From a virus, in IMG/VR virus record IMGVR_UViG_3300042888_000931, positions 1-64,000 of that record: DNA of 64,000 nt. One strand, 5' to 3'. Below are positions 837 through 19,852 of this stretch, piece after piece; the stretch's first letter is position 1, and the number at the start of each line of letters is the position of its first letter. The position numbers and the translations under genes are program-made. The notes beneath the pieces were generated by a model. The model was given only the letters and a program-made list of their open reading frames with translations. It was not told the DNA's origin and made no database searches.

Positions 837-2951
837 GTGGCAGAAGAGAATATTGACAATACCGCCAACGGTACTGGACCCTTCAACACCAAAATCCCTG
901 GACTTGGCGATGCAGCAGATATCCAGGCAGCCCTAAGACTTTATCACTATGGATCATATACTTATGATGCAGCAGCACCTGTTCCAGGCCCTCTTCCAAT
1001 CCCATCAGTTGCAAACCACCTAAAAACCCTTGTAGATGCAGATGCCCTAGAAGTAGTAAACAGAACTGCAGCAGATGACTTAGAAATAGTAAATAGAAAT
1101 GCAGCAATAGCAGCACATAATTCAGCAACTGTAAATGTCCACGGAATACTAGATACATCTGATTTAGTAACAATATCAGATCTAAATGATGCAATAGACA
1201 ACACAACTGGATCTTATCCTAACCTTGCTGGAAGCGGTATTGAGTGGAATTCTGTTGATGAGCAATTTGACCTTGATCAATCTTTATTAAACAATAATAC
1301 TGTAGTAATTAAGACAACTGGATTTACTTTAGATGCCCTCGATGTTAATAAAACAATTTTGCTTAATGCATCATCTCCAATGAATTTAACTGTTCCGCTA
1401 AATTCTGCTGTTAATATACCAGTTGGATACAAATATAATTTAGTTGAAATCGGAACAGCAAAAACAACTTTTGTTCCATCATCTGGCGTAACAATTGGTA
1501 GCAAGAACTCACAACTATTTTTAGATGGACAATATAGCAGAGGAAATCTTGTAAAGATTGGAACAGATTCTTGGATTTTGTATGGAGATGTTTATGAAGG
1601 TGTTGCAACACCTACCCCTACACCTGTAGCACCTACCCCTGTAGCACCTACCCCTGTAGCACCTACCCCTGTAGCGCCTACCCCTGTAGCGCCTACACCT
1701 GTAGCGCCTACACCTGTAGCGCCTACACCTGTAGCACCTACCCCAACACCAGTAGCACCGACTCCAGTTGCTCCAACACCAGTAGCACCTACCCCTACTC
1801 CTGTTGCACCAACACCTGTTCCAACACCAGTCCCTACTCCTGTAACACCGTTCTTTTCTCCAACACCAACACCAACACCAACACCAACACCAGTAGCACC
1901 TTCTTCAGGAGTTTGGTACACATTCTGCGGTAATGTTTCTGCAGGATATGCGCCAGGAACTGTAGTCGGACCAGTGTTTGATCCATCACTTACATGTTCT
2001 GAAGCATTAGCACAACAAACCTCATTTGGTGAAATTGGATCTGGATGGAACTGTGCATCAGGAACATCCGCATCTTCTTCTGTACCAGCAGCAAGTTGTG
2101 GAGTAACCCCTACACCAGTAGCACCTACTCCTACACCAGTTGCACCAACACCAGTCAACCCTTGTAACCCAGACTGGAGTTTAATTCCTCAATCACAATG
2201 TGTTGAGTGTGGATTAGTCTGGTCACCTGAGTTTGGTGAATGTATTAGCGTATCACCAACCCCTGTTGCCCCTACACCTGTAGCACCTACCCCTGTAGCA
2301 CCTACCCCTGTAGCGCCTACCCCTGTAGCGCCTACACCAGTTGCTCCAAGTTGTGTTCCAGCCGATGCGTGGTCATACAACCAGTCTAAGTGTCAGTCAT
2401 GCGGATATTACTACAGCACAGAATTTGGAGAGTGCTCAACAACTCCTTGGAATACACCTACCCCAGTTGCTCCAACACCAGTTGCTCCAACTCCAGTTGC
2501 TCCAACTCCAGTAGCACCTACACCTGTACCAGTTGCTCCTACACCAGTAGCACCTGTACCTGTACCTGTTGCTCCTACTCCAACTAATATATGTGCTGGA
2601 GATATTTCCTTACTTAGCCCAAGCCAGTGTACTGCTTGTGGATACTTCTACTCAACACAATTTGGTGAGTGTATAACTACTGCACCTACACCTGTAGCAC
2701 CACCGTTCTTCCCACCATTCTTCCCACCTTACTTCCCATTCTTCCCACCATTCTTCCCACCATTCTTTGGACCTGCACCAGTTGCTCCAACTCCAGTAGC
2801 ACCTACACCAGTAGCACCTACACCAGTAGCACCTGTACCTGTAGCACCTACACCTGTAGCACCTACACCAACAGGGGGATGTACTGGATGTATTAGAAAC
2901 TATTGCTACGAGCCATGTCCAGCATGTTGTAATGGCGACTGCGGATGCTAG
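837..2951 (+). CDS. Fibre/appendage protein with PTPVA repeats, three 4-Cys modules, a PPFF repeat and an 8-Cys C-terminal tail
   Basis: GTG start after GAGGTG. Shares HNSATVNVHGILDT and LTVPLNS...WILYGD domains with the fibre at 10323. Repeats are visible in the translation. Confidence 0.75.
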   Translation: MAEENIDNTANGTGPFNTKIPGLGDAADIQAALRLYHYGSYTYDAAAPVPGPLPIPSVANHLKTLVDADALEVVNRTAADDLEIVNRNAAIAAHNSATVNVHGILDTSDLVTISDLNDAIDNTTGSYPNLAGSGIEWNSVDEQFDLDQSLLNNNTVVIKTTGFTLDALDVNKTILLNASSPMNLTVPLNSAVNIPVGYKYNLVEIGTAKTTFVPSSGVTIGSKNSQLFLDGQYSRGNLVKIGTDSWILYGDVYEGVATPTPTPVAPTPVAPTPVAPTPVAPTPVAPTPVAPTPVAPTPVAPTPTPVAPTPVAPTPVAPTPTPVAPTPVPTPVPTPVTPFFSPTPTPTPTPTPVAPSSGVWYTFCGNVSAGYAPGTVVGPVFDPSLTCSEALAQQTSFGEIGSGWNCASGTSASSSVPAASCGVTPTPVAPTPTPVAPTPVNPCNPDWSLIPQSQCVECGLVWSPEFGECISVSPTPVAPTPVAPTPVAPTPVAPTPVAPTPVAPSCVPADAWSYNQSKCQSCGYYYSTEFGECSTTPWNTPTPVAPTPVAPTPVAPTPVAPTPVPVAPTPVAPVPVPVAPTPTNICAGDISLLSPSQCTACGYFYSTQFGECITTAPTPVAPPFFPPFFPPYFPFFPPFFPPFFGPAPVAPTPVAPTPVAPTPVAPVPVAPTPVAPTPTGGCTGCIRNYCYEPCPACCNGDCGC
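1609..2870 (+). repeat. Degenerate 15-bp coding tandem repeats (CCTACCCCTGTAGCA-type, PTPVA) in several blocks
   Basis: Directly visible at about 1609-1900, 2110-2155, 2255-2348, 2455-2585 and 2770-2870. Confidence 0.95.
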
Positions 2952-2995
2952 TGTATAATAGATATTACCAAAATAATCTATAGAAAAGAGCATTT

Positions 2996-3235
2996 ATGTC
3001 AGAAGAATTAACTCCTTGGCAAAAATACAAACAAAGTTTGGGAGAAACTAGACCCTGGGATCTTGTCAATCCTGAAACACAGTGGGCTACTTCCGAGGTA
3101 GCAGAAGAAAGATACTCTATTTGTAAGGGCTGTCCAGAACTAATAAAATTAACCAAACAGTGTAAAAAATGTGGATGTTTCATGGCAGCAAAAACAAAAC
3201 TAGAAAAGGCAGTATGCCCACTAGGTAAGTGGTAA
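2996..3235 (+). CDS. Small Cys-rich protein (DUF6171-like, CxxC-x8-CxxCGC-x12-CPxGKW)
   Basis: CKGCP...CKKCGCFM...KLEKAVCPLGKW motif. Confidence 0.65.
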   Translation: MSEELTPWQKYKQSLGETRPWDLVNPETQWATSEVAEERYSICKGCPELIKLTKQCKKCGCFMAAKTKLEKAVCPLGKW

Positions 3236-3819
3236 AAATGAAACCTCCTTATCTATTAAAAAATGTGTTACCACCAAAAGAACATAGAGAGTTACAAAAT
3301 TTGGCAATGAACTTGTGGTCAACAGACAAAACAACTTTTGATGAAGGATTTGGAAGGCATCAGTGGGCAATCTGGGATAACACACACAGAGAAAATGTAG
3401 AACCACTTAGAAAATTTCATGAGATGCTTTTGCCATTAGCAAAAGAAGAGTTTGAGTCAGAAACACTTTTGCCATCATGGTCTCTTATAAGTATTTATGA
3501 AACTGATAAGGCAAGGCTGTGGAAACATAAAGATGATAATGCTTGTACATATCATATGAACTATACTATTTTTCATAAGACACCCTGGGATTTTTATGTA
3601 GAGGGAGAAAGGTTTCAGCCAGAAGAAAACGATATGGTTATATCATATGGAAATGATCAAGAGCACTGGAGAGAAGAGTTTCCCAATCCAGAAACAAATT
3701 TAGTTGCAAATGCGTTTTTCTTTTATACAGAGCCAGATCACTGGTTTTTTACTGAAGGCCCTCAATATCTATATACCAATATTCGTGCTAAAAAAGATGA
3801 AGACTCTCCGAGTATGTAG
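3229..3819 (+). CDS. 2OG-Fe(II) oxygenase-like protein
   Basis: LWKHKDD (HxD) and distal EHWRE His; DSBH-type spacing. The start may be the ATG at 3238. Confidence 0.65.
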   Translation: MVKMKPPYLLKNVLPPKEHRELQNLAMNLWSTDKTTFDEGFGRHQWAIWDNTHRENVEPLRKFHEMLLPLAKEEFESETLLPSWSLISIYETDKARLWKHKDDNACTYHMNYTIFHKTPWDFYVEGERFQPEENDMVISYGNDQEHWREEFPNPETNLVANAFFFYTEPDHWFFTEGPQYLYTNIRAKKDEDSPSM

Positions 3820-3821
3820 TT

Positions 3822-4856
3822 ATGGGAAATATTTTTTATCAACTTTATCAGCCTTGCGGTTTGTTTAATCAGATAACAAGTTTAGAAACTGCGGTTGGTT
3901 TGTCAAGTAGATATAAAAAACAATTAATATTTTACAACATCAGTAATCCTGCAAATGGAGATTATGGTGGAGCAAGAGTTCCAATTTACTCTGCAAACTA
4001 TAGATATAATGAAAGAAGTCATCTAATTGATGTAGATGTTTTTCCAAATATTTCAGATTTGATGGATTGGGAAAATAAAGATTGCAATATTTTAATAAAT
4101 GATATTGTGGATAGTTTTACTAATGAAGATTTAAAAATAGAAAATTTAATGATGTACTATTCACCTGCGTCAAATGACTATAAAGATACGGAGAGTTACT
4201 TTTCTGAAGGAAGAGAGAGGCTGCTACTAGATAACTACAACAATGTACATTTAAAAAAAACATTGGGGTATTACAGCAGATTTTTTTTAGATCGTGAACC
4301 CTCATTAGATAAAAGTCTATCTTCTGTAAGATTTAAATCAGAATATTATCAACTAGCAGAAAAGATAGCCTTGTCTATTGGACTTTTTAATGGGGCACAC
4401 TTTAGGCTTACAGACCATAAAGGTATGTTTGACCCAGACAGCAACATTTTAGATTCTGGAATTAGCCAAATAGATAATGGCTTGCCTATAGTCATGTGCA
4501 CCGATCAACCAAATAGTGAATTAATAAAAAACTCTTCTTATAGTTATTTGTTATTAGATGACTATATATTGAATAATTTTTATAAAGAGTTTAGAGAGTT
4601 TAAATTTAAAGAAGAGGTTTCATTTGGCATATTAAATAACCTAGTTATGCACTATAGTCAAGAATTTATTGGAAGCCCAGGAAGCACATACACTGGATAC
4701 ATCCATAGAGGATTAAATCAAAAAAGAGATATACAATGGAGAATATTCGGGGAAGAAGAGCATCCACAAGATGGTCCGTACTCCTGGAATGGGTATGACA
4801 ATAAGGATAGTTTAACAAAACAGTGGTGGAGAGAATGGAAGGAATCAAGAATATGA
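3822..4856 (+). CDS. O-fucosyltransferase family glycosyltransferase (GT-B, POFUT-like)
   Basis: N-terminal GLFNQ, central GAHFRLTD (HxRxxD), MCTD, and C-terminal FIGSPGSTYT motifs typical of GDP-fucose-using GT-B enzymes. Confidence 0.75.
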   Translation: MGNIFYQLYQPCGLFNQITSLETAVGLSSRYKKQLIFYNISNPANGDYGGARVPIYSANYRYNERSHLIDVDVFPNISDLMDWENKDCNILINDIVDSFTNEDLKIENLMMYYSPASNDYKDTESYFSEGRERLLLDNYNNVHLKKTLGYYSRFFLDREPSLDKSLSSVRFKSEYYQLAEKIALSIGLFNGAHFRLTDHKGMFDPDSNILDSGISQIDNGLPIVMCTDQPNSELIKNSSYSYLLLDDYILNNFYKEFREFKFKEEVSFGILNNLVMHYSQEFIGSPGSTYTGYIHRGLNQKRDIQWRIFGEEEHPQDGPYSWNGYDNKDSLTKQWWREWKESRI

Positions 4857-5884
4857 AAACAGCATTAGTATTTGGCGCAGGTGGGTTTATAGGAAGCCAT
4901 ATGGTAAAGCGTTTAAAGTCAGAAGGATACTGGGTTCGTGGTGTTGACTTAAAACATCCAGACTTTTCAGAAACACAGGCAGACGAGTTTATTGAAAGAG
5001 ATTTGTCCGTATATGAAAATGTTGAAAAGGTTATTCAGTTTAAAGGATATCAAGGAAACTTCTACCATGAAATTCCTTATCGTTCTATAGATTCATTTGA
5101 CGAGATTTACCAGTTTGCTGCAGATATGGGTGGTGCAGGATATATTTTTACTGGTTTGAACGATTCTCAGATTATGGAAAACTCTGCCTTAATAAACCTC
5201 AATCTTTTAAGAGCACAGTCTAGGCTTAATGAAAAATATGATATTAACAAGACTAAAATATTTTATTCAAGTTCTGCCTGCATGTATCCTGACTACAAGC
5301 AGTTAGATGTCAATAATCCTGGACTTAAAGAATCTGATGCATACCCTGCAGACCCTGACAGCGAGTATGGTTGGGAAAAACTCTTTAGTGAAAGAATGTT
5401 CTTGGCATTTAATAGAAACAATAAGATCCCAGTGGCCATTGCTAGATACCACAATATTTATGGACCAGAAGGAACCTGGGATGGTGGAAAAGAAAAAGCA
5501 CCTGCTGCAATGTGTCGAAAAGTTATACAGGCAGATGGCTTTGTAGAAATTTGGGGGGATGGAGAACAAACCCGTTCATTCCTATACATAGATGAATGCA
5601 TAGAGGCAACAAGAAGACTTATGCAATCAGATTTTACTGGTCCTGTTAATATAGGGTCTGAAGAGATGGTTACTATAAATCAACTGGTTGATATTGCTTG
5701 CAGTATTGAGGGCAAGGTTTTGAGCAAGATGCATATTCCTGGACCTTTGGGAGTTAGAGGAAGAAATTCTAATAATGATTTGGTAAGAGAAAGACTAGGC
5801 TGGGATTACTCAATGTCTCTTAAAGATGGAATTGAAAAAACCTACAACTGGATACTTCAGGAAACAAAAAAGAACCCCTCCTAA
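4853..5884 (+). CDS. GDP-mannose 3,5-epimerase-like NAD-dependent epimerase
   Basis: GAGGFIGSH, AADMGG, SSACMYP, YGWEK, HNIYGPEGTWDGGKEKAPAAMCRK, WGDGEQTRSF and GVRGRNS match GME signatures. ATGA overlap with the upstream stop codon. Confidence 0.85.
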   Translation: MKTALVFGAGGFIGSHMVKRLKSEGYWVRGVDLKHPDFSETQADEFIERDLSVYENVEKVIQFKGYQGNFYHEIPYRSIDSFDEIYQFAADMGGAGYIFTGLNDSQIMENSALINLNLLRAQSRLNEKYDINKTKIFYSSSACMYPDYKQLDVNNPGLKESDAYPADPDSEYGWEKLFSERMFLAFNRNNKIPVAIARYHNIYGPEGTWDGGKEKAPAAMCRKVIQADGFVEIWGDGEQTRSFLYIDECIEATRRLMQSDFTGPVNIGSEEMVTINQLVDIACSIEGKVLSKMHIPGPLGVRGRNSNNDLVRERLGWDYSMSLKDGIEKTYNWILQETKKNPS

Positions 5885-5890
5885 GAGGGG
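5862..5890 (-). terminator. Intrinsic terminator between convergent genes
   Basis: CCCCTC-CTAA-GAGGGG hairpin at 5875-5890, preceded by an A-rich run that forms the U-tract on the minus strand. Confidence 0.7.
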
Positions 5891-5905
5891 GCCTAATTTG
5901 AGATA

Positions 5906-6469
5906 TTACTTAGGAAATTTAGCCATCCAGTATTTGGTTCTTGGAGTGATGCCCTTCCATGAGGACCAATCATCTCCACCATTTGTCATATAGTATGCAA
6001 TCTCTGCATTCTTGACGGGATTGAATAACTCAGCGTTTGACTCAAGATCAAACTTGGTTCTACGATCAGGACCAAGGTTGTCGATCATATTAATTTGGAA
6101 CATACCATAAGATGAGTCACCAGTCTTGTGGTTTCCGTTAAATGCTAATGGACGACCATTAGATTCCTTCTTGGCAACTGCCCAAGCCACAACAAGGTCT
6201 TTACCCTTGAAGCCAACTAGTGAAAGCAGTTCTTTTAGTTCTAGATCAGTCAGAGAAACCTTATTCTCAAAACTCTCTAGTTTTTTAGCCTTAGAAACCA
6301 AAAAAACCTCTTTCGAGGTGGTTTCCGATGTCTGAGCCTGTTCAAGGCTAAGATTGTTCTTTGTATCAAGACCTGAATCAGCATTTGCACCGTTCGACAA
6401 AACAGTTACTAATGCTACGATACTGAGTGTGCTAATGATCTCTTTGTTTCTTTCGATAAATTTAATCAT
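5906..6469 (-). CDS. Secreted lysozyme-like/lytic transglycosylase
   Basis: AVAKKES (catalytic Glu), SYGMFQINM, LFNPVKNA and WSSW motifs; N-terminal signal peptide ending ANA; AAGGAGG RBS before the ATG at 6469. Confidence 0.8.
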   Translation of the reverse strand: MIKFIERNKEIISTLSIVALVTVLSNGANADSGLDTKNNLSLEQAQTSETTSKEVFLVSKAKKLESFENKVSLTDLELKELLSLVGFKGKDLVVAWAVAKKESNGRPLAFNGNHKTGDSSYGMFQINMIDNLGPDRRTKFDLESNAELFNPVKNAEIAYYMTNGGDDWSSWKGITPRTKYWMAKFPK

Positions 6470-6516
6470 AGTTTCCTCCTTAGAAAACAATAACACCCTG
6501 GTAGGTGTTACTACCA

Positions 6517-6564
6517 AGTATATCATGAGATTTTTCAAAAAGCAACTTTAGAGGGTGGTATAAT
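6517..6564. promoter_or_regulatory. Divergent extended -10 promoters
   Basis: Minus-strand TGATATACT at about 6525-6517; plus-strand TGGTATAAT at 6556-6564, 7 nt before the ATG at 6572. Confidence 0.65.
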
Positions 6565-8291: not shown

Positions 8292-9779
8292 ATGGCAACA
8301 GTAAATAAAGATTTTAAAATTAAGAGTGGACTTATCGTTGAGGGCCTACAAGGTACAATCAACAATAAGAGAATTCTTACAGAGGATGCAGGAGATCAAT
8401 ACATCCTGGACCTTATTGGTGGAGAAACACTAGTAAAGTCAGTTTCAAATGAATTTGATGTTTCAGCAGGTGGAGAACTTTCACTTGACCGTGTAGTAGT
8501 AGATGCTTATTACGATGCAGCAGGCGATGCAGCAGCAGCACAGGCTGCAGCAGAAGCAACTGCTTCAGCAGATGCAACATCTAAGGCTAACGCTGCACAG
8601 GCTGCAGCAGAGGCTACAGCATCAGCAGATGCAACATCTAAGGCTAACGCAGCCCAAGCAGCAGCAGAGGCTACAGCATCAGCAGATGCAACATCTAAGG
8701 CTAACGCAGCCCAAGCAGCAGCAGAGGCTACAGCATCAGCAGATGCAACTTCAAAGGCTAACGCTGCACAGGCTGCAGCAGAAGCAACTGCTTCAGCAGA
8801 CGCTACTTCAAAGGCTAATGCAGCAGAAGCAGCAGCAAACCTTTACACAGATGGAGCAGTTTCAGCACTTGTTGATTCAGCACCAGAACTTCTAAATACA
8901 CTTAATGAATTGGCAGAAGCACTTGGTGATTCACCAGATACAATTACAAACCTTACAACATTAGTTGGAACAAAGGCTGACACATCATATGTTGACTCAG
9001 AAATTTCTGATCTTGACACAGCAGCACAGGGTTATGCATCAGCAGCACAGGCTGCAGCAGAGGCTACAGCATCAGCAGATGCAACTTCAAAGGCTAACGC
9101 TGCACAGGCTGCAGCAGAAGCAACTGCTTCAGCAGATGCAACTTCAAAGGCTAATGCAGCAGAAGCAGCAGCAATCGCACACGCAGATGCTCTTACAACA
9201 TCTGATGTAGCAGAAGGAACAGCACAGTACTTCACAGATGCTCGTGCTAAGTCTTCAGCAGCAAGTCTTTTGACTGGTGCAACACTTACAAACATTACAA
9301 TCACAGGAACAGGTGCAGGACTTACTATTACTGCAGAAAACGGTGTAGCAGACTCTACAACATCTGATCTTGCAGAAGGTTCACGACTATACTTCACAGA
9401 CGAAAGAGCAGTAGACGCTCTTGAAGCAGTAGTTCCAAACTTCACAGCAGTTGAGGTAAACTCAGTTGCTAAGCAGGTTGCTTCAACAATGTCAGCAGCA
9501 TCTGCAGGTGCTCATGTAGGACACGCATTTGCTAAAGCAGATTACCGTTCAGCAGAGTTCCTTGTAAAGGTTGCTTACGGATCACATACTGAAATCTCAA
9601 AGGTCCTTTTGACACTTGACGCTTCAGACAACATTGCAATGACCGAATACGGAATTGTTGGAACAAATGGCACAGCGATGTCAGTTTCAGCAAATGTTGA
9701 CGGTGCAAATGTACAACTTCTAGTAACAACCACAAACAATAACTCAACAGTTACTGTTGTCGGAACACTACTTGCGTAA
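8292..9779 (+). CDS. Tail fibre protein with Ala-rich 19-aa coiled-coil repeats
   Basis: AAGGAG RBS; 7 copies of AAQAAAEATASADATSKAN; APELLNTLNELAEALGD fibre motif; TSDxAEG..YFTD repeats. Confidence 0.8.
   Translation: MATVNKDFKIKSGLIVEGLQGTINNKRILTEDAGDQYILDLIGGETLVKSVSNEFDVSAGGELSLDRVVVDAYYDAAGDAAAAQAAAEATASADATSKANAAQAAAEATASADATSKANAAQAAAEATASADATSKANAAQAAAEATASADATSKANAAQAAAEATASADATSKANAAEAAANLYTDGAVSALVDSAPELLNTLNELAEALGDSPDTITNLTTLVGTKADTSYVDSEISDLDTAAQGYASAAQAAAEATASADATSKANAAQAAAEATASADATSKANAAEAAAIAHADALTTSDVAEGTAQYFTDARAKSSAASLLTGATLTNITITGTGAGLTITAENGVADSTTSDLAEGSRLYFTDERAVDALEAVVPNFTAVEVNSVAKQVASTMSAASAGAHVGHAFAKADYRSAEFLVKVAYGSHTEISKVLLTLDASDNIAMTEYGIVGTNGTAMSVSANVDGANVQLLVTTTNNNSTVTVVGTLLA
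8533..9170 (+). repeat. 57-bp coding tandem repeats (5 + 2 copies)
   Basis: GCTGCACAGGCTGCAGCAGAGGCTACAGCATCAGCAGATGCAACATCTAAGGCTAAC-type units. Confidence 0.9.
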
Positions 9780-10264: not shown

Positions 10265-10322
10265 AAAATTGATGTTATAATAAGATAAGTTAATGGGCAG
10301 CCCCCATAAGGAGAATATACAA

Positions 10323-11804
10323 ATGGCAACAAGAATGCAACAGCGCAGAGGTACTGCAGCACAATGGACGGCTGCAAACCCAATTCTAGCAGCAGGTGAA
10401 ATCGGTTTTGAAACAGATACAAGTAAGTTTAAGATGGGTAACGGCTCTTCAACATGGTCTGCCCTAACATATTTTGCTAATGCAACAGAATTAGCAGCAA
10501 TCGTTGATGGAGCACCAGCAGCCCTGAACACTCTCAATGAGTTAGCAGAAGCACTAGGAGACAATCCAGCATTTTTAACAGATATTTCAAACAATCTATC
10601 AAGCCATGCTAACGATACAACACTAATCCATGGTATTGCTGACACAGCACTTCTTGCAACTACAGCAAATGTAGAAGCAGCAAATCAGGCTGCCTCTGGA
10701 GCACTCTCAGAACACGCTGCAGATACTACATCAATCCATGGTATTGCAGACACATCACTTCTTGCAACAACTGCAGATATCACAACACACAATTCAGACA
10801 CAACAGGCGTACATGGTATTGCAGATACATCACTTCTAGCAACTACAGCAAATGTACAAGCAGCAGCAGATAGCGCATCAGCAGCACTTGGAGTACACGC
10901 TTCAGACACAACAGATGTTCATGGAATCGCTGATACTTCACTTCTTGCAACAACAGCAGATATTTCAACACACAACTCAGCAACAGAAAATGTTCACGGA
11001 ATTCTAGATACAGCAGAACTAGTGACACAGTCAGACCTAGTAACCGCACTAGGAAATGCTGCAGTAGATCAGTCAACTCTTGCAGGAGTAGGTATTGACT
11101 GGAACGGAACTTCAGAAGCATTTGACATTGATTCAACTGTAGCAACAAAGACTTACGCAGACGATGCAGTGACAACACACAACTCTGACACAACAAATGT
11201 TCACGGAATTGCAGACACATCACTTCTTGCGACAACTGCAGATGTGGCAGCAGTTACAAAAACCACTCTAGGTCTTGGAAATGTTGACAATACATCAGAT
11301 GCTGACAAGCCAGTTTCAACAGCAACTGTAACAGCAATCGCAACAGCAAAGTCTGAAGCAATTGCAGAAGTAACAGCAGTTATTGATGGTGCACCAAACG
11401 CACTTAACACCCTTAACGAACTTGCTGCAGCACTTGGCGATGATGCTAACTTTGCTTCAACAATTACAACATCACTTGCAGCAAAGGTAGATTCATACAC
11501 ACCAATTACACAAAAGACAGCATCTTATACTCTATCAACGCTAGATCACAGAGATGATTTAATTGAAATGGGTTCAGCATCAGCACTTACATTAACAATT
11601 CCGCTAAATTCATCAATTGCTTACCCAGTAGGAACATCTTTAGATATTCTTCAAACTGGTGCAGGTCAAGTAACGATTGCTGGAGCAGCAGGAGTTACCG
11701 TAAATGCAACACCAGGTCTTAAGTTGAGAACTCAGTGGTCATCTGCAACTCTTTTCAAGAGAGCAGAAAACACATGGGTTGTCTACGGCGATCTAACAGC
11801 GTAA
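10323..11804 (+). CDS. Tail fibre protein with Mtd-N-type anchor domain and His-containing repeats
   Basis: AAGGAG RBS; QRRGTAAQW...GEIGFETDT.KFKMGNG N-terminus; six HxxxTxxxHGIxDT repeats; LGLGNVDNTSDADKPVS motif. Confidence 0.8.
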   Translation: MATRMQQRRGTAAQWTAANPILAAGEIGFETDTSKFKMGNGSSTWSALTYFANATELAAIVDGAPAALNTLNELAEALGDNPAFLTDISNNLSSHANDTTLIHGIADTALLATTANVEAANQAASGALSEHAADTTSIHGIADTSLLATTADITTHNSDTTGVHGIADTSLLATTANVQAAADSASAALGVHASDTTDVHGIADTSLLATTADISTHNSATENVHGILDTAELVTQSDLVTALGNAAVDQSTLAGVGIDWNGTSEAFDIDSTVATKTYADDAVTTHNSDTTNVHGIADTSLLATTADVAAVTKTTLGLGNVDNTSDADKPVSTATVTAIATAKSEAIAEVTAVIDGAPNALNTLNELAAALGDDANFASTITTSLAAKVDSYTPITQKTASYTLSTLDHRDDLIEMGSASALTLTIPLNSSIAYPVGTSLDILQTGAGQVTIAGAAGVTVNATPGLKLRTQWSSATLFKRAENTWVVYGDLTA

Positions 11805-11836
11805 TACAAAATTCAATAAGAAATTAGGAGATACAA

Positions 11837-12808
11837 ATGGCAGCAGGTAAGAAGATAGGTAAGAAGTCCCAAGCGTCAAATGACTTTTTGGAGCCATTAA
11901 AGCCAGTTATTGGTACTGCAACAAACGTAGGAACTAACAGACCATTTAACAATGGAGCAGCAGTTGTTACATTTTCTTTACCCGCACTTTCCCCTGCTGC
12001 CACATCTTTCACAGTAACAGCAAGCACTGGACAGACAGGAACTGGAGCATCTTCTCCAATCACTGTAGAAGGCATTGCATCAACAGCAACACCAACATTT
12101 ACAGTAAGAGCAACTAATGCAGCAGGAACATCTGCTGCTTCTGATGCATCTAATTCTGTAACAATTACAACAGTTCCAGCAACACCATCTGCACCAACTG
12201 CAACAGCGGGAGTAGATCAAGATACAGTTTCTTGGACAGCACCAGCAAACGGAGGAAGTGCAATCACTTCTTATGTTTGGGCAGCATCAGATGGCAAAAC
12301 TAATTCAACAGCATCAACATCTGTCGCTGTAGGACAAGAAGCAAACACTGCACAGACATACACTGTTCGTGCAATAAATGCTAACGGAACATCTGCAACA
12401 TCTCCAGCATCCAATAACGTAACCACAATTGCTCCATTCTTTCCCCCATTCTTCCCCCCATTCTTCCCATTCTTCCCTCCATTTTTCCCACCATTCTTCC
12501 CGTTCTTCCCACCATTTTTCCCACCATTCTTCCCATTCTTCCCACCGTTCTTCCCATTCTTCCCTTACTTCCCATTCTTCCCACCGTTCTTCCCATTCTT
12601 CCCGTTCTTCCCACCGTTCTTCCCACCTTACTTCCCATTCTTTCCACCGTTCTTCCCATTCTTCCCTTACTTCCCATTCTTCCCACCGTTCTTCCCGTTC
12701 TTCCCGTTCTTCCCACCGTTCTTCCCACCAACATTCTCATCAAGTTCAGGACCAAAGTGTACAGCCAACTATTGCTGGCAGTGCCCATGTCAACCATGCG
12801 CTTGTTAA
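11837..12808 (+). CDS. FN3-domain virion protein with about 100-aa Pro/Phe repeat and 6-Cys tail
   Basis: Two FN3-like units (TFTVRATNAAGTS; VSWTAPANGGSAITSY...YTVRAINANGTS), then (PFFP/PPFF/PYFP)n, ending CTANYCWQCPCQPCAC. Confidence 0.8.
   Translation: MAAGKKIGKKSQASNDFLEPLKPVIGTATNVGTNRPFNNGAAVVTFSLPALSPAATSFTVTASTGQTGTGASSPITVEGIASTATPTFTVRATNAAGTSAASDASNSVTITTVPATPSAPTATAGVDQDTVSWTAPANGGSAITSYVWAASDGKTNSTASTSVAVGQEANTAQTYTVRAINANGTSATSPASNNVTTIAPFFPPFFPPFFPFFPPFFPPFFPFFPPFFPPFFPFFPPFFPFFPYFPFFPPFFPFFPFFPPFFPPYFPFFPPFFPFFPYFPFFPPFFPFFPFFPPFFPPTFSSSSGPKCTANYCWQCPCQPCAC
12433..12735 (+). repeat. Pyrimidine-rich 9/12-bp coding repeat (CCATTCTTC / CCACCGTTCTTC)
   Basis: Directly visible; a shorter copy of the same repeat lies at about 2699-2768. 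Confidence 0.95.
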
Positions 12809-13375: not shown

Positions 13376-14089
13376 ATGACAACTTATGATGAAAATGAAA
13401 CCCCTTGGTTTACCAAGGATAGATCAGAAACAGCCTTAAATAGATATCCATCAAAAACTATTGGAAACAATATTTTAGTTGAAAACCCAGCATTAGGAAT
13501 TAACCTATACAGAAATGTGTTTTCAAAAGAAGATTCTGAAAGATACATAAAAATATTAGAGTCTAATCTAGGTGGCAATGGAAAATACAAATGGTCAGAA
13601 GCAAAAGTAACTAACTCAGATGTGCCAATTAAAAAGGCTAGAGATGCTGTAGACTTTAGATTTAAGCAAGAAAATTTAGGTCCAAGAGACGAAGATAACT
13701 CTGAACTAATTGACCTACACGAAGAGATCTATCAAAAGTTAAAGTTCTGTGTTGACGATTATGCACGGTACTGGGGAATCAACGTAGTATATTATGAAGC
13801 ATTTAACTTTGTAAAGTATGAAGGAGAAGGAACCCACTTCAACATTCATGCCGATCACGGTCCAATGTATAATTGCACGGTCTCTGCTGTTATTTATATA
13901 AATGAAGACTACGAAGGTGGAGAGATTAGATTTCCAAGAATGGACAATTATACTCATAGTCCAAAAATAGGAGACATTGTTCTTTGCCCATCAAACTATA
14001 TTTATGAGCATGCTTCATTGCCTATGAAAGAGGGAACAAAGTATTGTGTTGTCGTAATGACAGACATTAATGAACTAGGACACAAGTAG
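13376..14089 (+). CDS. Prolyl 4-hydroxylase-like 2OG-Fe(II) oxygenase 1
   Basis: HAD...YINEDYEGGEI.F...HAS...GTKY. Confidence 0.85.
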   Translation: MTTYDENETPWFTKDRSETALNRYPSKTIGNNILVENPALGINLYRNVFSKEDSERYIKILESNLGGNGKYKWSEAKVTNSDVPIKKARDAVDFRFKQENLGPRDEDNSELIDLHEEIYQKLKFCVDDYARYWGINVVYYEAFNFVKYEGEGTHFNIHADHGPMYNCTVSAVIYINEDYEGGEIRFPRMDNYTHSPKIGDIVLCPSNYIYEHASLPMKEGTKYCVVVMTDINELGHK

Positions 14090-14856
14090 TGTCTTTAGTC
14101 GCTAAGTTCAGATCCTTTAGACCCTGGCTAGATAAAGAGAATATCTCTACACCAGTACCAACACAAAAAGAAATGCCAGATTGGTATAAAAACGCAGACA
14201 GATTTGCTAAAATGCCAAACGGAGAATACTATAAAGCACCAAAAGAAGTTTGTCCATTTCCCAAAGAAGGAACAACAGACGACTATGGAAAGATACCTAC
14301 ATGGAAGGCGTGTCCTGCAATTATGGATGCGTTTGCAACTGGTTATGTGTTTAAAACTCCTTGCGACCTAACATTTGCTAAAAATTCTCAGGGGATAATT
14401 AATGTTACAATTGATGATCCTAAATATAGAGACTTCTGTACACAAAGACCACCAATGCCACAGTTTGAACATCCAAAAGGATATTACCAGTACCACTTTG
14501 CCTGGAGTTCTCCATGGGGGCTAGAATTACCAGAAGGATATAGTGCATTATTTATGACTCCAATGAATAGGTTTGATCTGCCATTTTTAAATACTACTGG
14601 AGTTGTTGATTCTGACAAGGTACACCTTCTTGGAAGTTTTCCATTTTTTATAGCAGAGGGCTGGGAAGGAACGCTTCCTGCTGGAACCCCATACTTGCAA
14701 GTTCTTCCATTTAAAAGAGAAAACTGGGAACATGAGATAGAGATTTTAGGTCAGTCTGATATATATGGTAAAATGGTAGATAACGCAAAATTCTATCGGC
14801 AACCTGATGGAGGAGTGTACATTAAAAAAGTTTGGTCCCGTAGAGAATATAAATAG
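14089..14856 (+). CDS. Conserved phage protein, DUF6065-related
   Basis: PDWYK, TWKACPAIMD...GY, PEGYSALF..PMNR, GVVDSD, PAGTPYLQVLPFKRE. Confidence 0.6.
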   Translation: MSLVAKFRSFRPWLDKENISTPVPTQKEMPDWYKNADRFAKMPNGEYYKAPKEVCPFPKEGTTDDYGKIPTWKACPAIMDAFATGYVFKTPCDLTFAKNSQGIINVTIDDPKYRDFCTQRPPMPQFEHPKGYYQYHFAWSSPWGLELPEGYSALFMTPMNRFDLPFLNTTGVVDSDKVHLLGSFPFFIAEGWEGTLPAGTPYLQVLPFKRENWEHEIEILGQSDIYGKMVDNAKFYRQPDGGVYIKKVWSRREYK

Positions 14857-14865
14857 GAGAATAAA

Positions 14866-15549
14866 ATGCAAACATGGACAGAAAAAGAAGACCTTGGCAA
14901 TGGAATCATCTGCTATAGAAATGTAATCAAAAAAGAGTTTGACGTAATAAACAGACTTGAGTCCAACTTGGGATTAGTTGCTGACTACGGAGTGTTGTCT
15001 GCAGATGGCAAAAGATATCACTGGATGCCAGCCTATGTTGGATACCAGCAACTTATGCCAGACTATAGAGACTGCGTTGATTTTAAGTTTAAAAAAACAG
15101 ACATAGAATTAGACAAAAGCGAAGAGTCCTTAAATCTACAGGCATTGTGGCAAGACATTTATGATGCACAACATGCAGCAGTAGAAGATTATAGAAAAGA
15201 CTACAACATTATGCCACTTAAATACTGGGAGGCTTTTAACTTTATCAAGTATGGTCCAGGTCAGCACTTTATGGAGCACCATGACCACGGATATTCTTAC
15301 AACTGCACACTATCTTTAGTTGCATACGTAAATGACGACTATGATGGCGGAGAGTTATTCTTTAGACTGCAAGGACTAAACATTAAGCCACAGGCTGGAG
15401 ATTTGTACATCTTCCCATCTAATTTTATGTATCCTCATCAGGCTATGCCAGTTCACTCTGGAACAAAGTATTCTATTGTAACAATGTTAGACTATAGCAA
15501 GAAGTATCATACACCAGATATGTATGATCCAAAGTGGGACAATGAGTAA
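14866..15549 (+). CDS. P4H-like 2OG-Fe(II) oxygenase 2 (close paralog of 13376)
   Basis: EAFNFIKY, HHDHG, YVNDDYDGGEL, FPSNFMYPHQA, GTKY. Confidence 0.85.
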   Translation: MQTWTEKEDLGNGIICYRNVIKKEFDVINRLESNLGLVADYGVLSADGKRYHWMPAYVGYQQLMPDYRDCVDFKFKKTDIELDKSEESLNLQALWQDIYDAQHAAVEDYRKDYNIMPLKYWEAFNFIKYGPGQHFMEHHDHGYSYNCTLSLVAYVNDDYDGGELFFRLQGLNIKPQAGDLYIFPSNFMYPHQAMPVHSGTKYSIVTMLDYSKKYHTPDMYDPKWDNE

Positions 15550-16265
15550 TGCTAAATATATCAGTAGAAAGGATGCAAGGTAGTAATTTTAATATTAGTC
15601 CAATGTCTATTAAAAGAGATTGGATGGACCTTACATCTGAACACCATGCATATAGATGTTTTCCAGTAACACAGGCAAACGTTATTGGATGGAATCTTAC
15701 TTGCACAGAAGATATTGAGTTTGAGTGGGATGGTATAAATGATCAAACAGATCAGCATGTAACAATATTTAATCCACAAGGTTCTTATGCTGGTAGAGGT
15801 CAGTCTTCTATAAGTTTAAATACTAGTTTAGTTTTTAGAACAGATCCAGAAATTAGCATCTGGACAATTAATCCAGTAAACTATTTTAGCGAAGACTTTG
15901 AGACAATGTCTAACCTGGTTAGCACATCTTTTTATCCCAATCCACTACCACTTGCCATTAGAGCACGAAAAGCAAATCAAAGAGTAGTCATAAAAGCAGG
16001 TACTCCAATAGCAACGATTATTCCTATATCTCTAACAAACTTAAATAACACTACTATAGAGGTTGTTGAATATAGAGATGACGACAGGTCAAAGGAAAAC
16101 GCAAACAGATCCTACGGTGAAGCAGCACAAGAAGTAAACAAGTCTGGACAATGGACAGATTGGTATAGAGATGCTATTAACGAAAAGGGAGAAAGTTTAG
16201 GTTCTCACGAAGTAAAAGCATTAAAACTTTCAGTTAAAGATAACACGAATGGTGATACAATATGA
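15549..16265 (+). CDS. DUF6065-family protein
   Basis: RDWMD...HAYRCFPVTQANVIGW and KAGTPIATIIP motifs. Confidence 0.7.
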   Translation: MLNISVERMQGSNFNISPMSIKRDWMDLTSEHHAYRCFPVTQANVIGWNLTCTEDIEFEWDGINDQTDQHVTIFNPQGSYAGRGQSSISLNTSLVFRTDPEISIWTINPVNYFSEDFETMSNLVSTSFYPNPLPLAIRARKANQRVVIKAGTPIATIIPISLTNLNNTTIEVVEYRDDDRSKENANRSYGEAAQEVNKSGQWTDWYRDAINEKGESLGSHEVKALKLSVKDNTNGDTI

Positions 16266-16936
16266 ACATGGATGAATACAAAGTAGTACAAAGAAAGCCA
16301 TCAATGACGCCATCAGGCTGGTTTGGTAACAGCAAGGATATGATTGTTGAATTAGAAAATTTTATGACACAACAAGAAATAGAGTTTCTAGAAAAGGCTG
16401 CAAAGTCATTAACAATTTGGGATGTTACTGAAAGCCATGTTAATGAAAATGGAACTGTCGTATATGAAGCAAGTTATTGGAAAGACAGGGTTGCTACTAG
16501 TCCTACTCTAGATAAGAATGATCCATCGATTGCTCCAATTATTGCAGGTCTGTTTGAAAGACTAAAGCCAATAGTTGAAGAGTTCTACAAGGTAAAGGTT
16601 ATTCCTACTGGAACAACCATTGTTAGATGGCTTCCTGGTCAGTTCCAGAAGCCTCATGCAGACAAAGAACTGCATGAAGGTCCAGATGCTGGAACTCCAA
16701 ATGATTTTCCAAACTACGACCTTTCTAGTTTGTTCTATTTGAATGATGATTATGAGGGTGGAGAGTTATACTTCCCATTACAAGATGTTAAGTTTAAACC
16801 TAAAAAAGGTGCTGCTTACTTTTTTCCAGGGGATATGAATTATATTCACGGAGTAACAGAGATTAAGAGTGGTATCAGATACACCTGCCCATTCTTCTGG
16901 GAAATTACAGAGCATACGGGAGATAGAAAGCCATGA
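16262..16936 (+). CDS. P4H-like 2OG-Fe(II) oxygenase 3
   Basis: HAD, YLNDDYEGGELYF, HGV, RYT. A leaderless start at 16268 is possible. Confidence 0.85.
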   Translation: MNMDEYKVVQRKPSMTPSGWFGNSKDMIVELENFMTQQEIEFLEKAAKSLTIWDVTESHVNENGTVVYEASYWKDRVATSPTLDKNDPSIAPIIAGLFERLKPIVEEFYKVKVIPTGTTIVRWLPGQFQKPHADKELHEGPDAGTPNDFPNYDLSSLFYLNDDYEGGELYFPLQDVKFKPKKGAAYFFPGDMNYIHGVTEIKSGIRYTCPFFWEITEHTGDRKP

Positions 16937-17805
16937 CAGAGTCTCTTAATGCAGTTGAAATATATCCAAAGATTTTTGTATATAAGGGTCTCTTTAAAGA
17001 CATAAATCACACCTATAGTCTTTTAAAAGAATCAGAAGGACAGGAAGATGGACTTTTTAGTCCTTGGACGAGTTGGTCTCACTTTGGAGAATATATTAAT
17101 CCAATATTTAAAAACCATAATGATAATTTAAAAATAGAACATGTTCAAACTATAAAAACTTCAACAGAAAAACAAGAAGAACATAAGCAAGTTCTTTTAG
17201 AAATTCTTAATAATTTTATGATAGCAACAAAAGACTATATTGCAAAAAACAATGTTGACTTTGACGAAGATAGGCTTGTCCCAGGTATTAAAGATCAAAG
17301 AGGAAATGATGTTAAAGAATGGGTATATACTGGACCATCTATAGCAAGATACAAGGTAGACATTGAAGACCCACTGGCAATGACATATCATACAGACTAC
17401 ATAAGAGAGCCAATAGTAAGCCCAGGACACAAGTTTGCAATTACTGCTTTAACATACTTTAATGACGATTACCACGGTGGAGAAATTGATTTTATAGCAA
17501 ATGGAGAAGCGTATATGTATAAGCCAGAGGCTGGAGACCTTCTCGTTTTTCCATCAGGTCATCCAGAATTTCTAATGTCTGAAAAGTCTATATACCTTCA
17601 TGGAGTAATGCCTGCAGAGCATAACTCAAAGTATCTTTCAAGAATGTACTGGACAAAATACTCTACTGGTTCACCAGAGTGGCTTGAGAACGAAGAAAGA
17701 CTTGGCAAGGAAAAGTGGCAGGAAGAATGGAAAGACATTATGCAAAAGTTTAGAGATGAGAATCCTAATAGAAATAATGCTGATAAAGAAAGAAGGATAC
17801 AATGA
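16933..17805 (+). CDS. P4H-like 2OG-Fe(II) oxygenase 4
   Basis: HTD, YFNDDYHGGEI, HGV, SKY. Confidence 0.8.
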   Translation: MTESLNAVEIYPKIFVYKGLFKDINHTYSLLKESEGQEDGLFSPWTSWSHFGEYINPIFKNHNDNLKIEHVQTIKTSTEKQEEHKQVLLEILNNFMIATKDYIAKNNVDFDEDRLVPGIKDQRGNDVKEWVYTGPSIARYKVDIEDPLAMTYHTDYIREPIVSPGHKFAITALTYFNDDYHGGEIDFIANGEAYMYKPEAGDLLVFPSGHPEFLMSEKSIYLHGVMPAEHNSKYLSRMYWTKYSTGSPEWLENEERLGKEKWQEEWKDIMQKFRDENPNRNNADKERRIQ

Positions 17806-18548
17806 ATCTAGATAATAAAAAGAGAATAACTAAGGACATAGTTGTTTATGAAAACTTTATTGATGCAGAAACTGCTGCAAAACTTGTAAAGGTTTTAGAC
17901 AAGCATGTAGAAGTTGGCACAATAACCTGGATGCCTATATCTTTCTATGAGTCTTATTCCTCAGTATTGCCACAAGACAATGATGAGCATGTAGAAAACG
18001 AAGGATTGCCAAGCGACATATTTTCACAAATGAAGCAAGGAATTATTGAGGCAGTTGCAAGTGTTCACGATCTTGACCCAAAGATAATTTCTCAAATTGG
18101 ATACCATACGCAAAAGTGGGAGCCAGGAGCATATGCAAGAAAGCATTCCGATAACACTGATGAGCATGGAAAATCTGGTGCTTTTACAAGAAGCAGGTAT
18201 GCAGCATTCTTATATTTGAATGATGACTTTGAAGGTGGAATGTTGCAGTTCCCAGACCAAGACATAAGTCTTCAACCTAAAGTTGGAATGCTTGCTGCAT
18301 TTGACGGGGGATTTAACAATATGCACGAAGTAACCCTTATCACTAGTGGAGTTAGATACACCATTGGTTCATTCTGGGATGATCGTGAAGAGGATGCTTA
18401 CCCTCAAGAAGTAAGAGATGCTTGGGCTGAAGAGATGAAGGCCACTAGAGCACAACAGGAAATTGAAAGAGCAGAGTGGCAAGAGTTGCTGAAGCAAGGC
18501 TGGAAACTTGATGCTGATGGAAATAAATATAAGGCGGAGGACCTGTAA
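17802..18548 (+). CDS. P4H-like 2OG-Fe(II) oxygenase 5
   Basis: HSD, YLNDDFEGG, HEV, RYT. Confidence 0.85.
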   Translation: MNLDNKKRITKDIVVYENFIDAETAAKLVKVLDKHVEVGTITWMPISFYESYSSVLPQDNDEHVENEGLPSDIFSQMKQGIIEAVASVHDLDPKIISQIGYHTQKWEPGAYARKHSDNTDEHGKSGAFTRSRYAAFLYLNDDFEGGMLQFPDQDISLQPKVGMLAAFDGGFNNMHEVTLITSGVRYTIGSFWDDREEDAYPQEVRDAWAEEMKATRAQQEIERAEWQELLKQGWKLDADGNKYKAEDL

Positions 18549-19211
18549 GTGGAAGTTTTTTTAAAAAAAGAGTTTGATGATGCTGGATATAGTACTGAGG
18601 TTTTTCATGAACATGTTTTGTTTATAGAAGACTTTATCAGTGCTGAAGAACTTGATACTATTTTAAAAATAATTGAAACGACCCCAAACGAAGACTGGAT
18701 GATAGAGTATACTAAAAATCTTGCTAGATTCTGCATGGAAAAGTTTGGAAGAGATGATGTAGATAATCTTGTTGCAGAAGGAAAGTTTGAGATTACTCAA
18801 AATTGGGCAGACAAGAATTTAAACATTGTTACTGAGCCGATAAGCGTAACCCTTCAAGGAAGACTTGGAAGACTTCTGGCACTTGCAGACCCATCTCTAG
18901 AACTTGCTGGTTTTGGAACACTACAAAGGATGCAGGGTGGGGTTGAACTAAAGTCTCACACAGACCAGCATACAGATCCATCCATTAGATATGCTGCTAT
19001 ACTATACATTAACGATGACTACAAGGATGGAACTTTATTCTTTAAAAATAAAGAGAATTCAGACTTAAGGCCAAAGCCAGGAACATTGCTTATTTTCCCA
19101 GGTAACGAAGAATATGAGCATGGAGTAAGGCCTGTAGGAGAAGGACCCATAAGATATGTTACTGTAGGCTTTATGAAGGTAACAGGTTTTTATGAGAAAA
19201 ATAAATACTAA
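18549..19211 (+). CDS. P4H-like 2OG-Fe(II) oxygenase 6
   Basis: HTD, YINDDYKDG, HGV, RYV; GGAGG RBS before a GTG start. Confidence 0.85.
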   Translation: MEVFLKKEFDDAGYSTEVFHEHVLFIEDFISAEELDTILKIIETTPNEDWMIEYTKNLARFCMEKFGRDDVDNLVAEGKFEITQNWADKNLNIVTEPISVTLQGRLGRLLALADPSLELAGFGTLQRMQGGVELKSHTDQHTDPSIRYAAILYINDDYKDGTLFFKNKENSDLRPKPGTLLIFPGNEEYEHGVRPVGEGPIRYVTVGFMKVTGFYEKNKY

Positions 19212-19222
19212 GGAGATACAAA

Positions 19223-19852
19223 ATGGACAGAGAAATACTTGAGGAAAAGGTTTATTATTACACAAATGTAATTGAAGACCCAAAGAAACTTGTTGAGGCA
19301 ATTGAAAATGACAACAAGGATGAATGGGGAGAGTGGATGGCATGCAGCGGAGAGCACTATGTCTATGGAACAGACAAGAGCATATCTTTAACAGCAGAGT
19401 CAAACGAAAAAGATAAGTATATTTATAACACTCTACAAAAGGCATTTGATGATGTAGCAAGAGACTACGCTGCAGCACAAGGTATTACAGAAGAGCCAAA
19501 ACTGTTTCCAATGTATCCTATCAAGAAGTACCAGCCTGGAACGTTTATGGGTGCACACTTTGATCAGCAAGAAGGAGACGAAAGACTAAAGGTTTCTTTT
19601 GTTATGTACCTTAATGATGATTACGAAGGCGGAGAAATATCTTTCACTATTGCTTCTCCAGACGGAGTTTTACAGAATCCAAGCCCAGAAGCAGATTTTG
19701 CAGAAGCACAGCATAATGGAAATTATTCATTTGCAGTAAAGCCAAAGGCTGGAAGCATCATTGTGTTCCCACCATCACCACCATACCATCACACTGCACA
19801 CCTAGTTAAAAGCGGTGAAAAGATCATGGTCCCACAACACTGGATTCACTAG
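19223..19852 (+). CDS. P4H-like 2OG-Fe(II) oxygenase 7
   Basis: HFD, YLNDDYEGGEI, HTA, GEK. Confidence 0.85.
   Translation: MDREILEEKVYYYTNVIEDPKKLVEAIENDNKDEWGEWMACSGEHYVYGTDKSISLTAESNEKDKYIYNTLQKAFDDVARDYAAAQGITEEPKLFPMYPIKKYQPGTFMGAHFDQQEGDERLKVSFVMYLNDDYEGGEISFTIASPDGVLQNPSPEADFAEAQHNGNYSFAVKPKAGSIIVFPPSPPYHHTAHLVKSGEKIMVPQHWIH

Follow-up and report, generated by a model that had tools for sequence, protein, structure and literature searches.

A phage cassette coupling a fucosyltransferase-like enzyme to a GDP-mannose 3,5-epimerase homologue behind a proline-rich fibre gene

GDP-mannose 3,5-epimerases (GME or GM35E) are defined by an NAD motif, a triad of Ser and YxxxK, a catalytic Cys and Lys, and a supporting Arg (Gevaert et al., PMC6678494, section 8). 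Glycosylation of phage-particle proteins is documented for very few phages, and is reported for the capsid and tail-tube proteins of mycobacteriophages. The prolyl 4-hydroxylase of chlorovirus PBCV-1 hydroxylates viral Pro-rich repeats (PMC3634087), and the GlcNAc-transferase Gnt1 is specific for hydroxyproline and depends on prolyl hydroxylation (PMC6939170). Here we describe a locus at the start of a 64,000-nucleotide (nt) stretch of viral DNA (the window), which makes up the first 64 kb of the 90-kb IMG/VR virus record IMGVR_UViG_3300042888_000931 (estimated to be 82% complete). In this locus, a tail-fibre gene is followed by genes for a small Cys-rich protein (DUF6171), a 193-aa conserved protein, a glycosyltransferase related to protein O-fucosyltransferases (POFUTs), and a GME homologue. 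In the literature searched, phage GME appeared in a single cyanophage paper only, and neither DUF6171 nor a GME-transferase pair next to a fibre gene was mentioned anywhere.

A packed transferase-epimerase cassette

An ORF listing of the window placed five ORFs on the plus strand (Table 1), in the order given by the original prediction, which had been made from the DNA letters and their translated ORFs and had named them a fibre with dozens of PTPVA units, a small Cys-rich protein directly behind it, an oxygenase, a POFUT-like transferase, and a GME-like epimerase. The fibre carries 31 exact PTPVA units, and the small protein behind it contains DUF6171. A 44-nt gap separates the fibre and DUF6171 genes; the subsequent junctions are 2 nt, 2 nt, and -4 nt, the last being the predicted ATGA stop/start overlap of the transferase and epimerase genes, which is real (4853-4856). 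With junctions this short, the last four genes form one tightly packed unit.

Against the PDB, the epimerase matched Arabidopsis GME (2c59) over residues 6-341 with an E value of 1.5e-90 (307 bits), and the next-best short-chain dehydrogenase/reductase (SDR), 6bwl, reached 1e-21 (81 bits). The extended SDR family of Pfam and a PHROG were also matched; no NCBIfam model scored above its cut-off. The alignment with 2c59 contains identical blocks GAGGFIG (GxxGxxG), SSSAC, YGWEK, EKAP, and VRGRNS, and, counted along it, the triad Ser, the catalytic Cys (C145 in Arabidopsis), Y174xxxK178, K217, and R306 are all kept. The numbers of Y174, K178, and K217 in the Arabidopsis enzyme are presumably those of Major et al. 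(2005). By homology, the protein is a GME orthologue and is predicted to have the activity of one, in line with its earlier description as GME-like. Compared with plant GME, it has an 18-residue insertion (residues 61-78) between NAD-binding strands; by eye, this insertion is apparently absent from the 57%-identical homologue of locus L025, described below. GME homologues were found in 37 phage records, mostly of Synechococcus myoviruses.

The transferase was assigned at the level of its family. Relatives numbered 223 in a protein collection clustered at 90% identity and 180 representatives at 50% identity in a library of 1.8 billion proteins, and a tblastn search with the transferase alone gave no match to the family in 50,697 GenBank phage records. 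The window's own transferase had no match to the O-FucT family PF10250 at an E value of ≤0.1 and so fell below the gathering score; a scan of the phage's whole record for PF10250 was also empty. PF10250 was matched by 14 of 30 close relatives and by 38 of 55 wider relatives (E value of ≤0.01). Two family profiles were used, A2 (55 family members) and the narrower A1 (close homologues). All eight PDB matches of A2 were POFUT2 or POFUT1 (best E value, 8.3e-11), and its alignment with POFUT2 spans the donor-binding C-terminal half, including the H-x-R-x-x-D and G-S-T-F blocks. In this half, the window's transferase carries H193-x-R195-x-x-D198 and S288-T289, of which R195, D198, S288, and T289 do not vary among the family members. 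Its feature neighbours in ESM-Atlas were clusters of O-FucT, NodZ, FUT8, and XG_FTase (xyloglucan-FucT), at 0.94 to 0.96. An hhalign comparison with family C8 gave a probability of 50% over 45 columns only. Judged from these profiles and motifs, the enzyme belongs to the fucosyltransferase-like superfamily and is nearest to the POFUTs; we do not claim POFUT orthology, and the predicted likeness is borne out by the family profile, not by the single sequence. POFUT2 and POFUT1 (PF10250) correspond to CAZy families GT68 and GT65.

A scan of IMG/VR for the transferase family recovered 62 viral loci, representing 32 transferase clusters at 95% identity. In 60 of these loci (31 of the 32 clusters), a GME homologue lay ≤1.1 kb from the transferase on the same strand. 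The transferase came first in 43 loci and the epimerase in 17. In 50 loci, the two genes were ≤28 nt apart; the other 10 had a single gene between them, an FkbM-type methyltransferase being among the inserted genes. The two loci without pairing were L051, where a contig end cuts the transferase, and L061, which carries a 32%-identical relative. In L052-L058, L101, and L123, the pair occupied a second insertion site, flanked by the homologues of genes 6572 and 7160 of the window. In L025, a differently organised phage, the whole block lies between tail genes and lysis genes and consists of a (VP)n plus Cys-tail protein, a small ORF, DUF6171, the 193-aa protein, the transferase, and GME. Because the pair persists through inversion, relocation, and transfer, which is the strongest evidence on this point, we infer on good grounds that the epimerase feeds the transferase. 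As the original prediction proposed, the phage would thus make its own rare L-sugar donor for a fucosyltransferase-fold enzyme. At the second insertion site, the epimerase precedes the transferase, and the fibre of these loci has YTFTPVA/YSFTPVA heptads, not PTPVA.

The retention of the pair across all these rearrangements and on other backbones makes it very improbable that the transferase uses host GDP-fucose or GDP-mannose while the epimerase serves otherwise, or that the transferase is inactive; the conserved motif residues likewise argue against decay. What speaks for such an arrangement is that the donor is unreadable from sequence and that the GME equilibrium favours GDP-mannose. True GME without the POFUT-like transferase occurred in L076 and L137. 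In L137, the GME is 96% identical and is followed by weakly GT11-like (E value, 0.036) and GT8-like (E value, 0.02) ORFs, both below cut-off (region 4100-5059 and 3366-4103, both on the minus strand); a GT11-like ORF in this place also tells against an epimerase that serves otherwise.

The portal protein is 46 to 48% identical to portals of ~130-kb Streptomyces phages. A WhiB-family gene lies at 81235-81408 of the record, outside the window (E value, 8e-13, above the Pfam cut-off); the family was found in only 1 of 14 control genomes, from Corynebacterium. Because of this gene and the Streptomyces-phage-like portal, an actinobacterial host is likely, and this uncultured, siphovirus-like phage is probably an actinophage. 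An initial cyanophage assumption was dropped on the same two results. We also looked for a phage-encoded supply of GDP-mannose and found none: the sugar-nucleotidyltransferase family PF00483 is absent from the 90-kb, 82%-complete record, so GDP-mannose would come from the host.

From the observed family-level gene identities, gene coupling, and island make-up, a scheme with a predicted donor, acceptor, site, and benefit can be drawn. Our favoured explanation, in which we place about even confidence, is that the cassette decorates the phage's own fibre with an L-sugar. GME would take host GDP-D-mannose and epimerise it at C3 and C5 to GDP-L-galactose and/or GDP-L-gulose. The transferase, a predicted GT-B enzyme of fucosyltransferase fold and presumably of the inverting type, would draw off this minor equilibrium product and move the L-hexose to a protein acceptor. 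The most likely acceptor is the fibre encoded upstream, with its Pro-rich, Cys-knotted stalk, and the site could be Thr/Ser or hydroxylated Pro. Such a glycan would make the fibre stiffer, protect or mask it, or adjust adsorption.

Table 1. Features of the window, with coordinates in nt from its first letter
Feature	Coordinates	Strand	Basis or remark
Tail-fibre protein, 704 aa	837-2951	+	ORF; PHROG tail families at residues 142-256
DNA tandem arrays in fibre gene	1617-1789, 2250-2349, 2463-2582, 2700-2767, 2771-2870		15-nt tandem arrays
PPFF/PFF repeat, fibre residues ~622-645	2700-2767		Inside fibre
Fibre-to-SLT slot	2952-5905		Island census
DUF6171 small Cys-rich protein, 79 aa	2996-3235	+	Pfam PF19668, E value 1.5e-6, 28.9 bits vs cut-off 27
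193-aa conserved protein ("OXY")	3238-3819	+	Alternative GTG start at 3229; phrog_2954
Glycosyltransferase, 344 aa, O-FucT/POFUT (PF10250) superfamily	3822-4856	+	Family profile and motifs
GDP-mannose 3,5-epimerase (GME/GM35E) homologue, 343 aa from ATG	4823/4853-5884	+	PDB 2c59 match; Pfam, PHROG
18-residue insertion of epimerase	5033-5086		Alignment with plant GME
GC-rich hairpin	5875-5890	.	Between epimerase gene and convergent SLT lysozyme-like gene; T-run on minus strand; pattern scan only
SLT lysozyme-like gene	5906-6538	-	Convergent to epimerase gene
Ala-rich repeat protein, 495 aa	8292-9779		No PHROG match
Second fibre set	10293-12808		Carries Pro/Phe polymer (11837-12808 product)
Seven PF13640 oxygenases and one DUF6065 protein	13376-19852		In a row
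Portal	27401-28993		Identity to Streptomyces phage portals

The fibre as candidate acceptor

The N-terminal ~256 aa of the fibre form a fibre/minor-tail-like domain, to which the PHROG tail matches map. Beyond it lie a Pro/Thr/Val/Ala stalk, three four-Cys modules of 27 to 28 aa, a PPFF stretch, and a C-terminal tail with eight Cys; Pro, Thr, and Cys account for 27%, 15%, and 5% of residues 257-704, and the whole protein has 24 Cys. Dipeptide counts gave 56 [ST]P and 39 AP, the Pro residues are non-contiguous, and the underlying DNA is organised in 15-nt tandem arrays. A motif scan found no SP3+ motif of extensins in the fibre, to which a likeness to plant extensin had been ascribed. POFUTs recognise EGF C-x4-S/T-C and TSR C-x2-S/T-C-x2-G patterns, and the fibre had 0 matches to these. 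A POFUT-type Cys-knot acceptor was rejected as a general answer, the consensus being absent and three transferase-positive fibres having no Cys. The PPFF/PFF repeat inside the fibre resembles Pro/Phe polymers encoded in L018 (16061-16909), in L059 (7468-8220), and by the 11837-12808 gene of the window.

We next asked what precedes the transferase elsewhere, using the 34 transferase loci with ≥2.5 kb of upstream sequence and a threshold of 20% Pro for a Pro-rich ORF. In 29 of these 34 loci, a Pro-rich ORF of the same strand ended ≤6 kb before the transferase; of all 715 long ORFs there, just 44 are Pro-rich. Four of the five loci missing one have a YTFTPVA-type fibre just under 20% Pro; the fifth is L061. 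The pairing recurred in eight of nine loci where neither the SLT gene nor the 7160 gene of the window has a close homologue, L025 with its clearly different gene order being one of them. The 837-2951 fibre is, on this showing, a candidate acceptor.

The pair might instead glycosylate another virion protein, for example, at the C termini of capsid or tail-tube proteins or in the second fibre set, and we rate this as improbable. Placement directly after a fibre or Pro-rich gene is the dominant arrangement, and on the L025 backbone the gene ahead of the cassette encodes a 181-aa (VP)n protein with a Cys tail rather than a capsid or tube protein. Set against this, the pair in L053-L058, L101, and L123 is away from the fibre, between two other structural genes, and PT-rich fibres exist without the pair. 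The phage is also a probable actinophage (WhiB; portal 48% identical to Streptomyces phage portals), and mycobacteriophage glycans reportedly sit on capsid and tail-tube C termini (Freeman, 2023).

The window encodes a further repeat protein at 8292-9779. This 495-aa product carries about seven near-identical 19-residue Ala-rich repeats (AAQAAAEATASADATSKAN) and is probably a coiled fibre shaft.

The tailoring island and the weight of the evidence

Scanning IMG/VR with the SLT gene returned at least 587 stretches, of which the best 80, all at ≥89% identity, were kept. Pooling the transferase-fetched and SLT-fetched loci gave 54 non-redundant fibre-to-SLT slots among L001-L145, and these 54 slots held 35 architectures. 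Assigned by cluster, the 193-aa protein was present in 29 loci and the transferase in 23. The GME cluster, assigned by cluster and identity, was present in 27 loci, 3 of which have only 25 to 26% identical SDRs; the "GME" entries of L124, L139, and L140 were accordingly set aside as not true GME. On the basis of scanned representatives, PF13640 2-oxoglutarate (2OG) oxygenases occurred in 29 loci, cupins in 11, FkbM methyltransferases in 4, a second SDR in 4, and radical SAM/SPASM proteins in 3. PF11397 "Glycosyltransferase (GlcNAc)" proteins occurred in 12 loci (3 verified); PF11397 is the family of the Skp1 hydroxyproline GlcNAc-transferase Gnt1 (GT60). Transferase-like families without an assignment were also among the contents. 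Several loci had GT8-like and GT11-like candidates, called from motifs by eye or from sub-threshold matches, as were the labels of clusters C7, C8, C9, C22, C90, and C91. Many very close relatives (SLT ≥89% identical) have the fibre and DUF6171 without the pair. Past the second fibre set, 8 to 14 kb downstream, the window has its own row of PF13640 oxygenases (Table 1).

By gene content, the slot is a hypervariable tailoring island, stocked with the kinds of enzymes that hydroxylate and O-glycosylate proteins. The PF13640, PF11397, methyltransferase, and radical-SAM/SPASM enzymes of sister islands favour a tailoring of the fibre protein. We read the four-gene cassette as an optional element of this island, placed directly after the fibre gene.

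The make-up of the island also bears on the possibility that the pair alters a host envelope glycan (cell-wall polysaccharide, S-layer glycan, or lipoglycan), thereby blocking superinfection or slowing the loss of progeny on debris. Such a role is the usual reading of cyanomyovirus sugar genes, some PF10250 members act on polysaccharides, and the GT8-like and GT11-like candidates of the islands could extend a glycan. The GME homologues of cyanomyoviruses S-H68 and S-SM2 lie in large sugar/LPS-type islands, far from fibre genes, and PMC9602691 interprets the GME (ORF123) and O-fucosyltransferase (ORF113) of S-SCSM1 as cell-wall modification genes. The cassette described here, in contrast, sits within a fibre gene block, not a metabolic island; it accompanies a Pro-rich repeat protein in 29 of 34 loci, and its slot is shared with protein- or peptide-modifying enzymes (PF13640, PF11397, and SPASM radical SAM). 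No flippase, polymerase, or lipid-carrier transferase was found among the proteins scanned, which included part of the window's ORFs. We therefore consider an envelope target unlikely.

DUF6171 (also matched by phrog_13558; E value, 5.8e-16) is a six-Cys module with the pattern CxxC...CxxCxC...C. Related loci encode it either as a separate protein ahead of tailoring enzymes or as part of them: it is fused to the 193-aa protein in the metagenomic clusters P0299 and P0301 (270 to 271 aa), and in L099 (10678-11865, minus strand) and L118 it is joined to PF11397 transferase-like proteins (395 to 400 aa). Because of these fusions, DUF6171 may be a docking or adaptor module of tailoring enzymes or a metal-binding partner of them.

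The 193-aa protein had been called a 2OG oxygenase, a call that stays weak after the searches. The family has 492 relatives. An alignment of 41 sequences shows invariant H97-x-D99 and H168 and a nearly invariant H143; the HxD/E...H iron-triad pattern is present, and its distal ligand could be H143 or H168. Matches to the AlkB-like family PF13532 were obtained for 16 of the 41 members at an E value of ≤1, all below cut-off (best, 3.3e-4), and the window's protein scored 15.3 bits against a cut-off of 31.2. It had no Pfam match above cut-off, and neither the single sequence nor the family profile A3 matched the PDB; hhalign against the PF13640 oxygenases of neighbouring loci gave a probability of 4%. 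A weak ESM-Atlas lead scored 0.91 with only 118 shared features. The PHROG label "ferrochelatase" was set aside, as every other search left it unsupported. An AlkB-like 2OG/Fe(II) oxygenase is a possible identity for this protein.

Several results weigh against decoration of the fibre as proposed. As a single sequence, the transferase had no match in Pfam, NCBIfam, PHROGs, or the PDB. The POFUT match is restricted to its C-terminal half, the N-terminal half being unaligned, and the A1 profile ranks POFUT2 fourth and fifth (E value, 0.73), behind YbeY and cellulases. The tendency of some PF10250 relatives towards polysaccharides, given above, counts here too. The proposed Pro hydroxylase, the 193-aa protein, is not demonstrably an oxygenase. 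Because the transferase served as the query for half of the loci, it is over-represented among the 54 slots. A search for an association between Thr-rich repeats and the transferase gave none: the mean Thr fraction was 0.133 where the slot holds the pair (22 loci) and 0.187 where it does not (29 loci, 3 of them with the pair at another place in the locus). Close relatives that lack the pair have PT-rich fibres just as often, the pair occurs with Cys-free fibres (L021, L023, and L028), and the (VP)n partner in L025 has almost no Thr. Pro is the sole residue type common to all candidate acceptors. Synteny with the fibre could largely reflect common descent within one phage lineage, and the fibre stands as a candidate acceptor.

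The occurrence of the cassette behind a (VP)n protein on another phage backbone shows that Thr on PTPVA is not required. Pro being common to all candidate partners, the attachment site may be hydroxyproline.

A broader reading, which we hold only tentatively, is that of an abundant uncultured freshwater actinophage lineage with a swappable "fibre glycocode." Its Pro-rich, Cys-knotted stalk would be hydroxylated and O-glycosylated in the cytoplasm by interchangeable cassettes, with DUF6171 as the shared docking module. Three cassettes would belong to it: POFUT-like transferase plus GME (alpha-L-galactose/L-gulose), P4H-type oxygenase plus Skp1-Gnt1-like GlcNAc transferase, and radical-SAM/SPASM plus SDR. 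If true, this would be a bacteriophage counterpart of the mucin, hydroxyproline-rich glycoprotein (HRGP), and Skp1 chemistry of eukaryotes, diversifying under host or predator pressure.

A scan for promoter-like sites (19, versus 20.7 expected from shuffles) and terminator-like sites (6, versus 4.8 in shuffles, judged no excess) gave counts not above shuffles, and no claim on operon structure is made from them. The hairpin at the end of the epimerase gene, found in this pattern scan with site numbers not above shuffles, likely marks the unit's end. The window contains no tRNAs.

Comparison with known systems

If the favoured explanation is right, the cassette would bring L-galactosylation or L-gulosylation to a protein of a bacterial virus by a compact two-enzyme route for attaching L-hexose to proteins. 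It would also explain the hypervariable region of a phage group with at least 587 related IMG/VR stretches.

The phage epimerase resembles plant GME (2c59) and Methylacidiphilum GME over its full length, with the NAD motif, triad, and catalytic and supporting residues in place. Unlike those enzymes, it is coupled translationally to a transferase, has the 18-residue insertion, and has no link to ascorbate synthesis. POFUT2 and POFUT1 are the sole solved relatives of the transferase profile, and the H-x-R-x-x-D and G-S-T-F blocks align with those of POFUT2. The phage enzyme differs in matching over the C-terminal half only, in being encoded beside a fibre without the EGF/TSR acceptor consensus, and in being bacterial-viral and cytoplasmic, not in the ER; its likely donor would be GDP-L-Gal or GDP-L-Gul, not GDP-Fuc.

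In sister islands, oxygenases of the prolyl-hydroxylase type (PF13640) occur together with PF11397 proteins, as in the PhyA-Gnt1 pathway of Skp1, and their candidate substrates are Pro-rich repeats. The window's cassette, in contrast to that pathway and to HRGPs, has no PF11397 protein, and its 193-aa hydroxylase is putative. Compared with plant and algal HRGPs, the fibre has no SP3+ motif and its Pro residues are non-contiguous, and the transferase falls outside known Hyp-transferase families. Cyanomyovirus S-SCSM1 has both a GME and an O-fucosyltransferase annotated (PMC9602691); in the myoviruses, the genes are dispersed in large LPS-like islands.

Mycobacteriophage virion glycosylation is a further related system: transferases encoded by these phages reportedly modify structural proteins of the phage itself (Freeman et al., 2023), and an actinobacterial host is also probable here. 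Their reported targets are capsid and tail-tube C termini, whereas here the candidate is a fibre stalk and the cassette bears its own donor-making epimerase. These data are consistent with a variant of phage protein glycosylation, well supported in gene identity and coupling and with a predicted sugar, site, and target.

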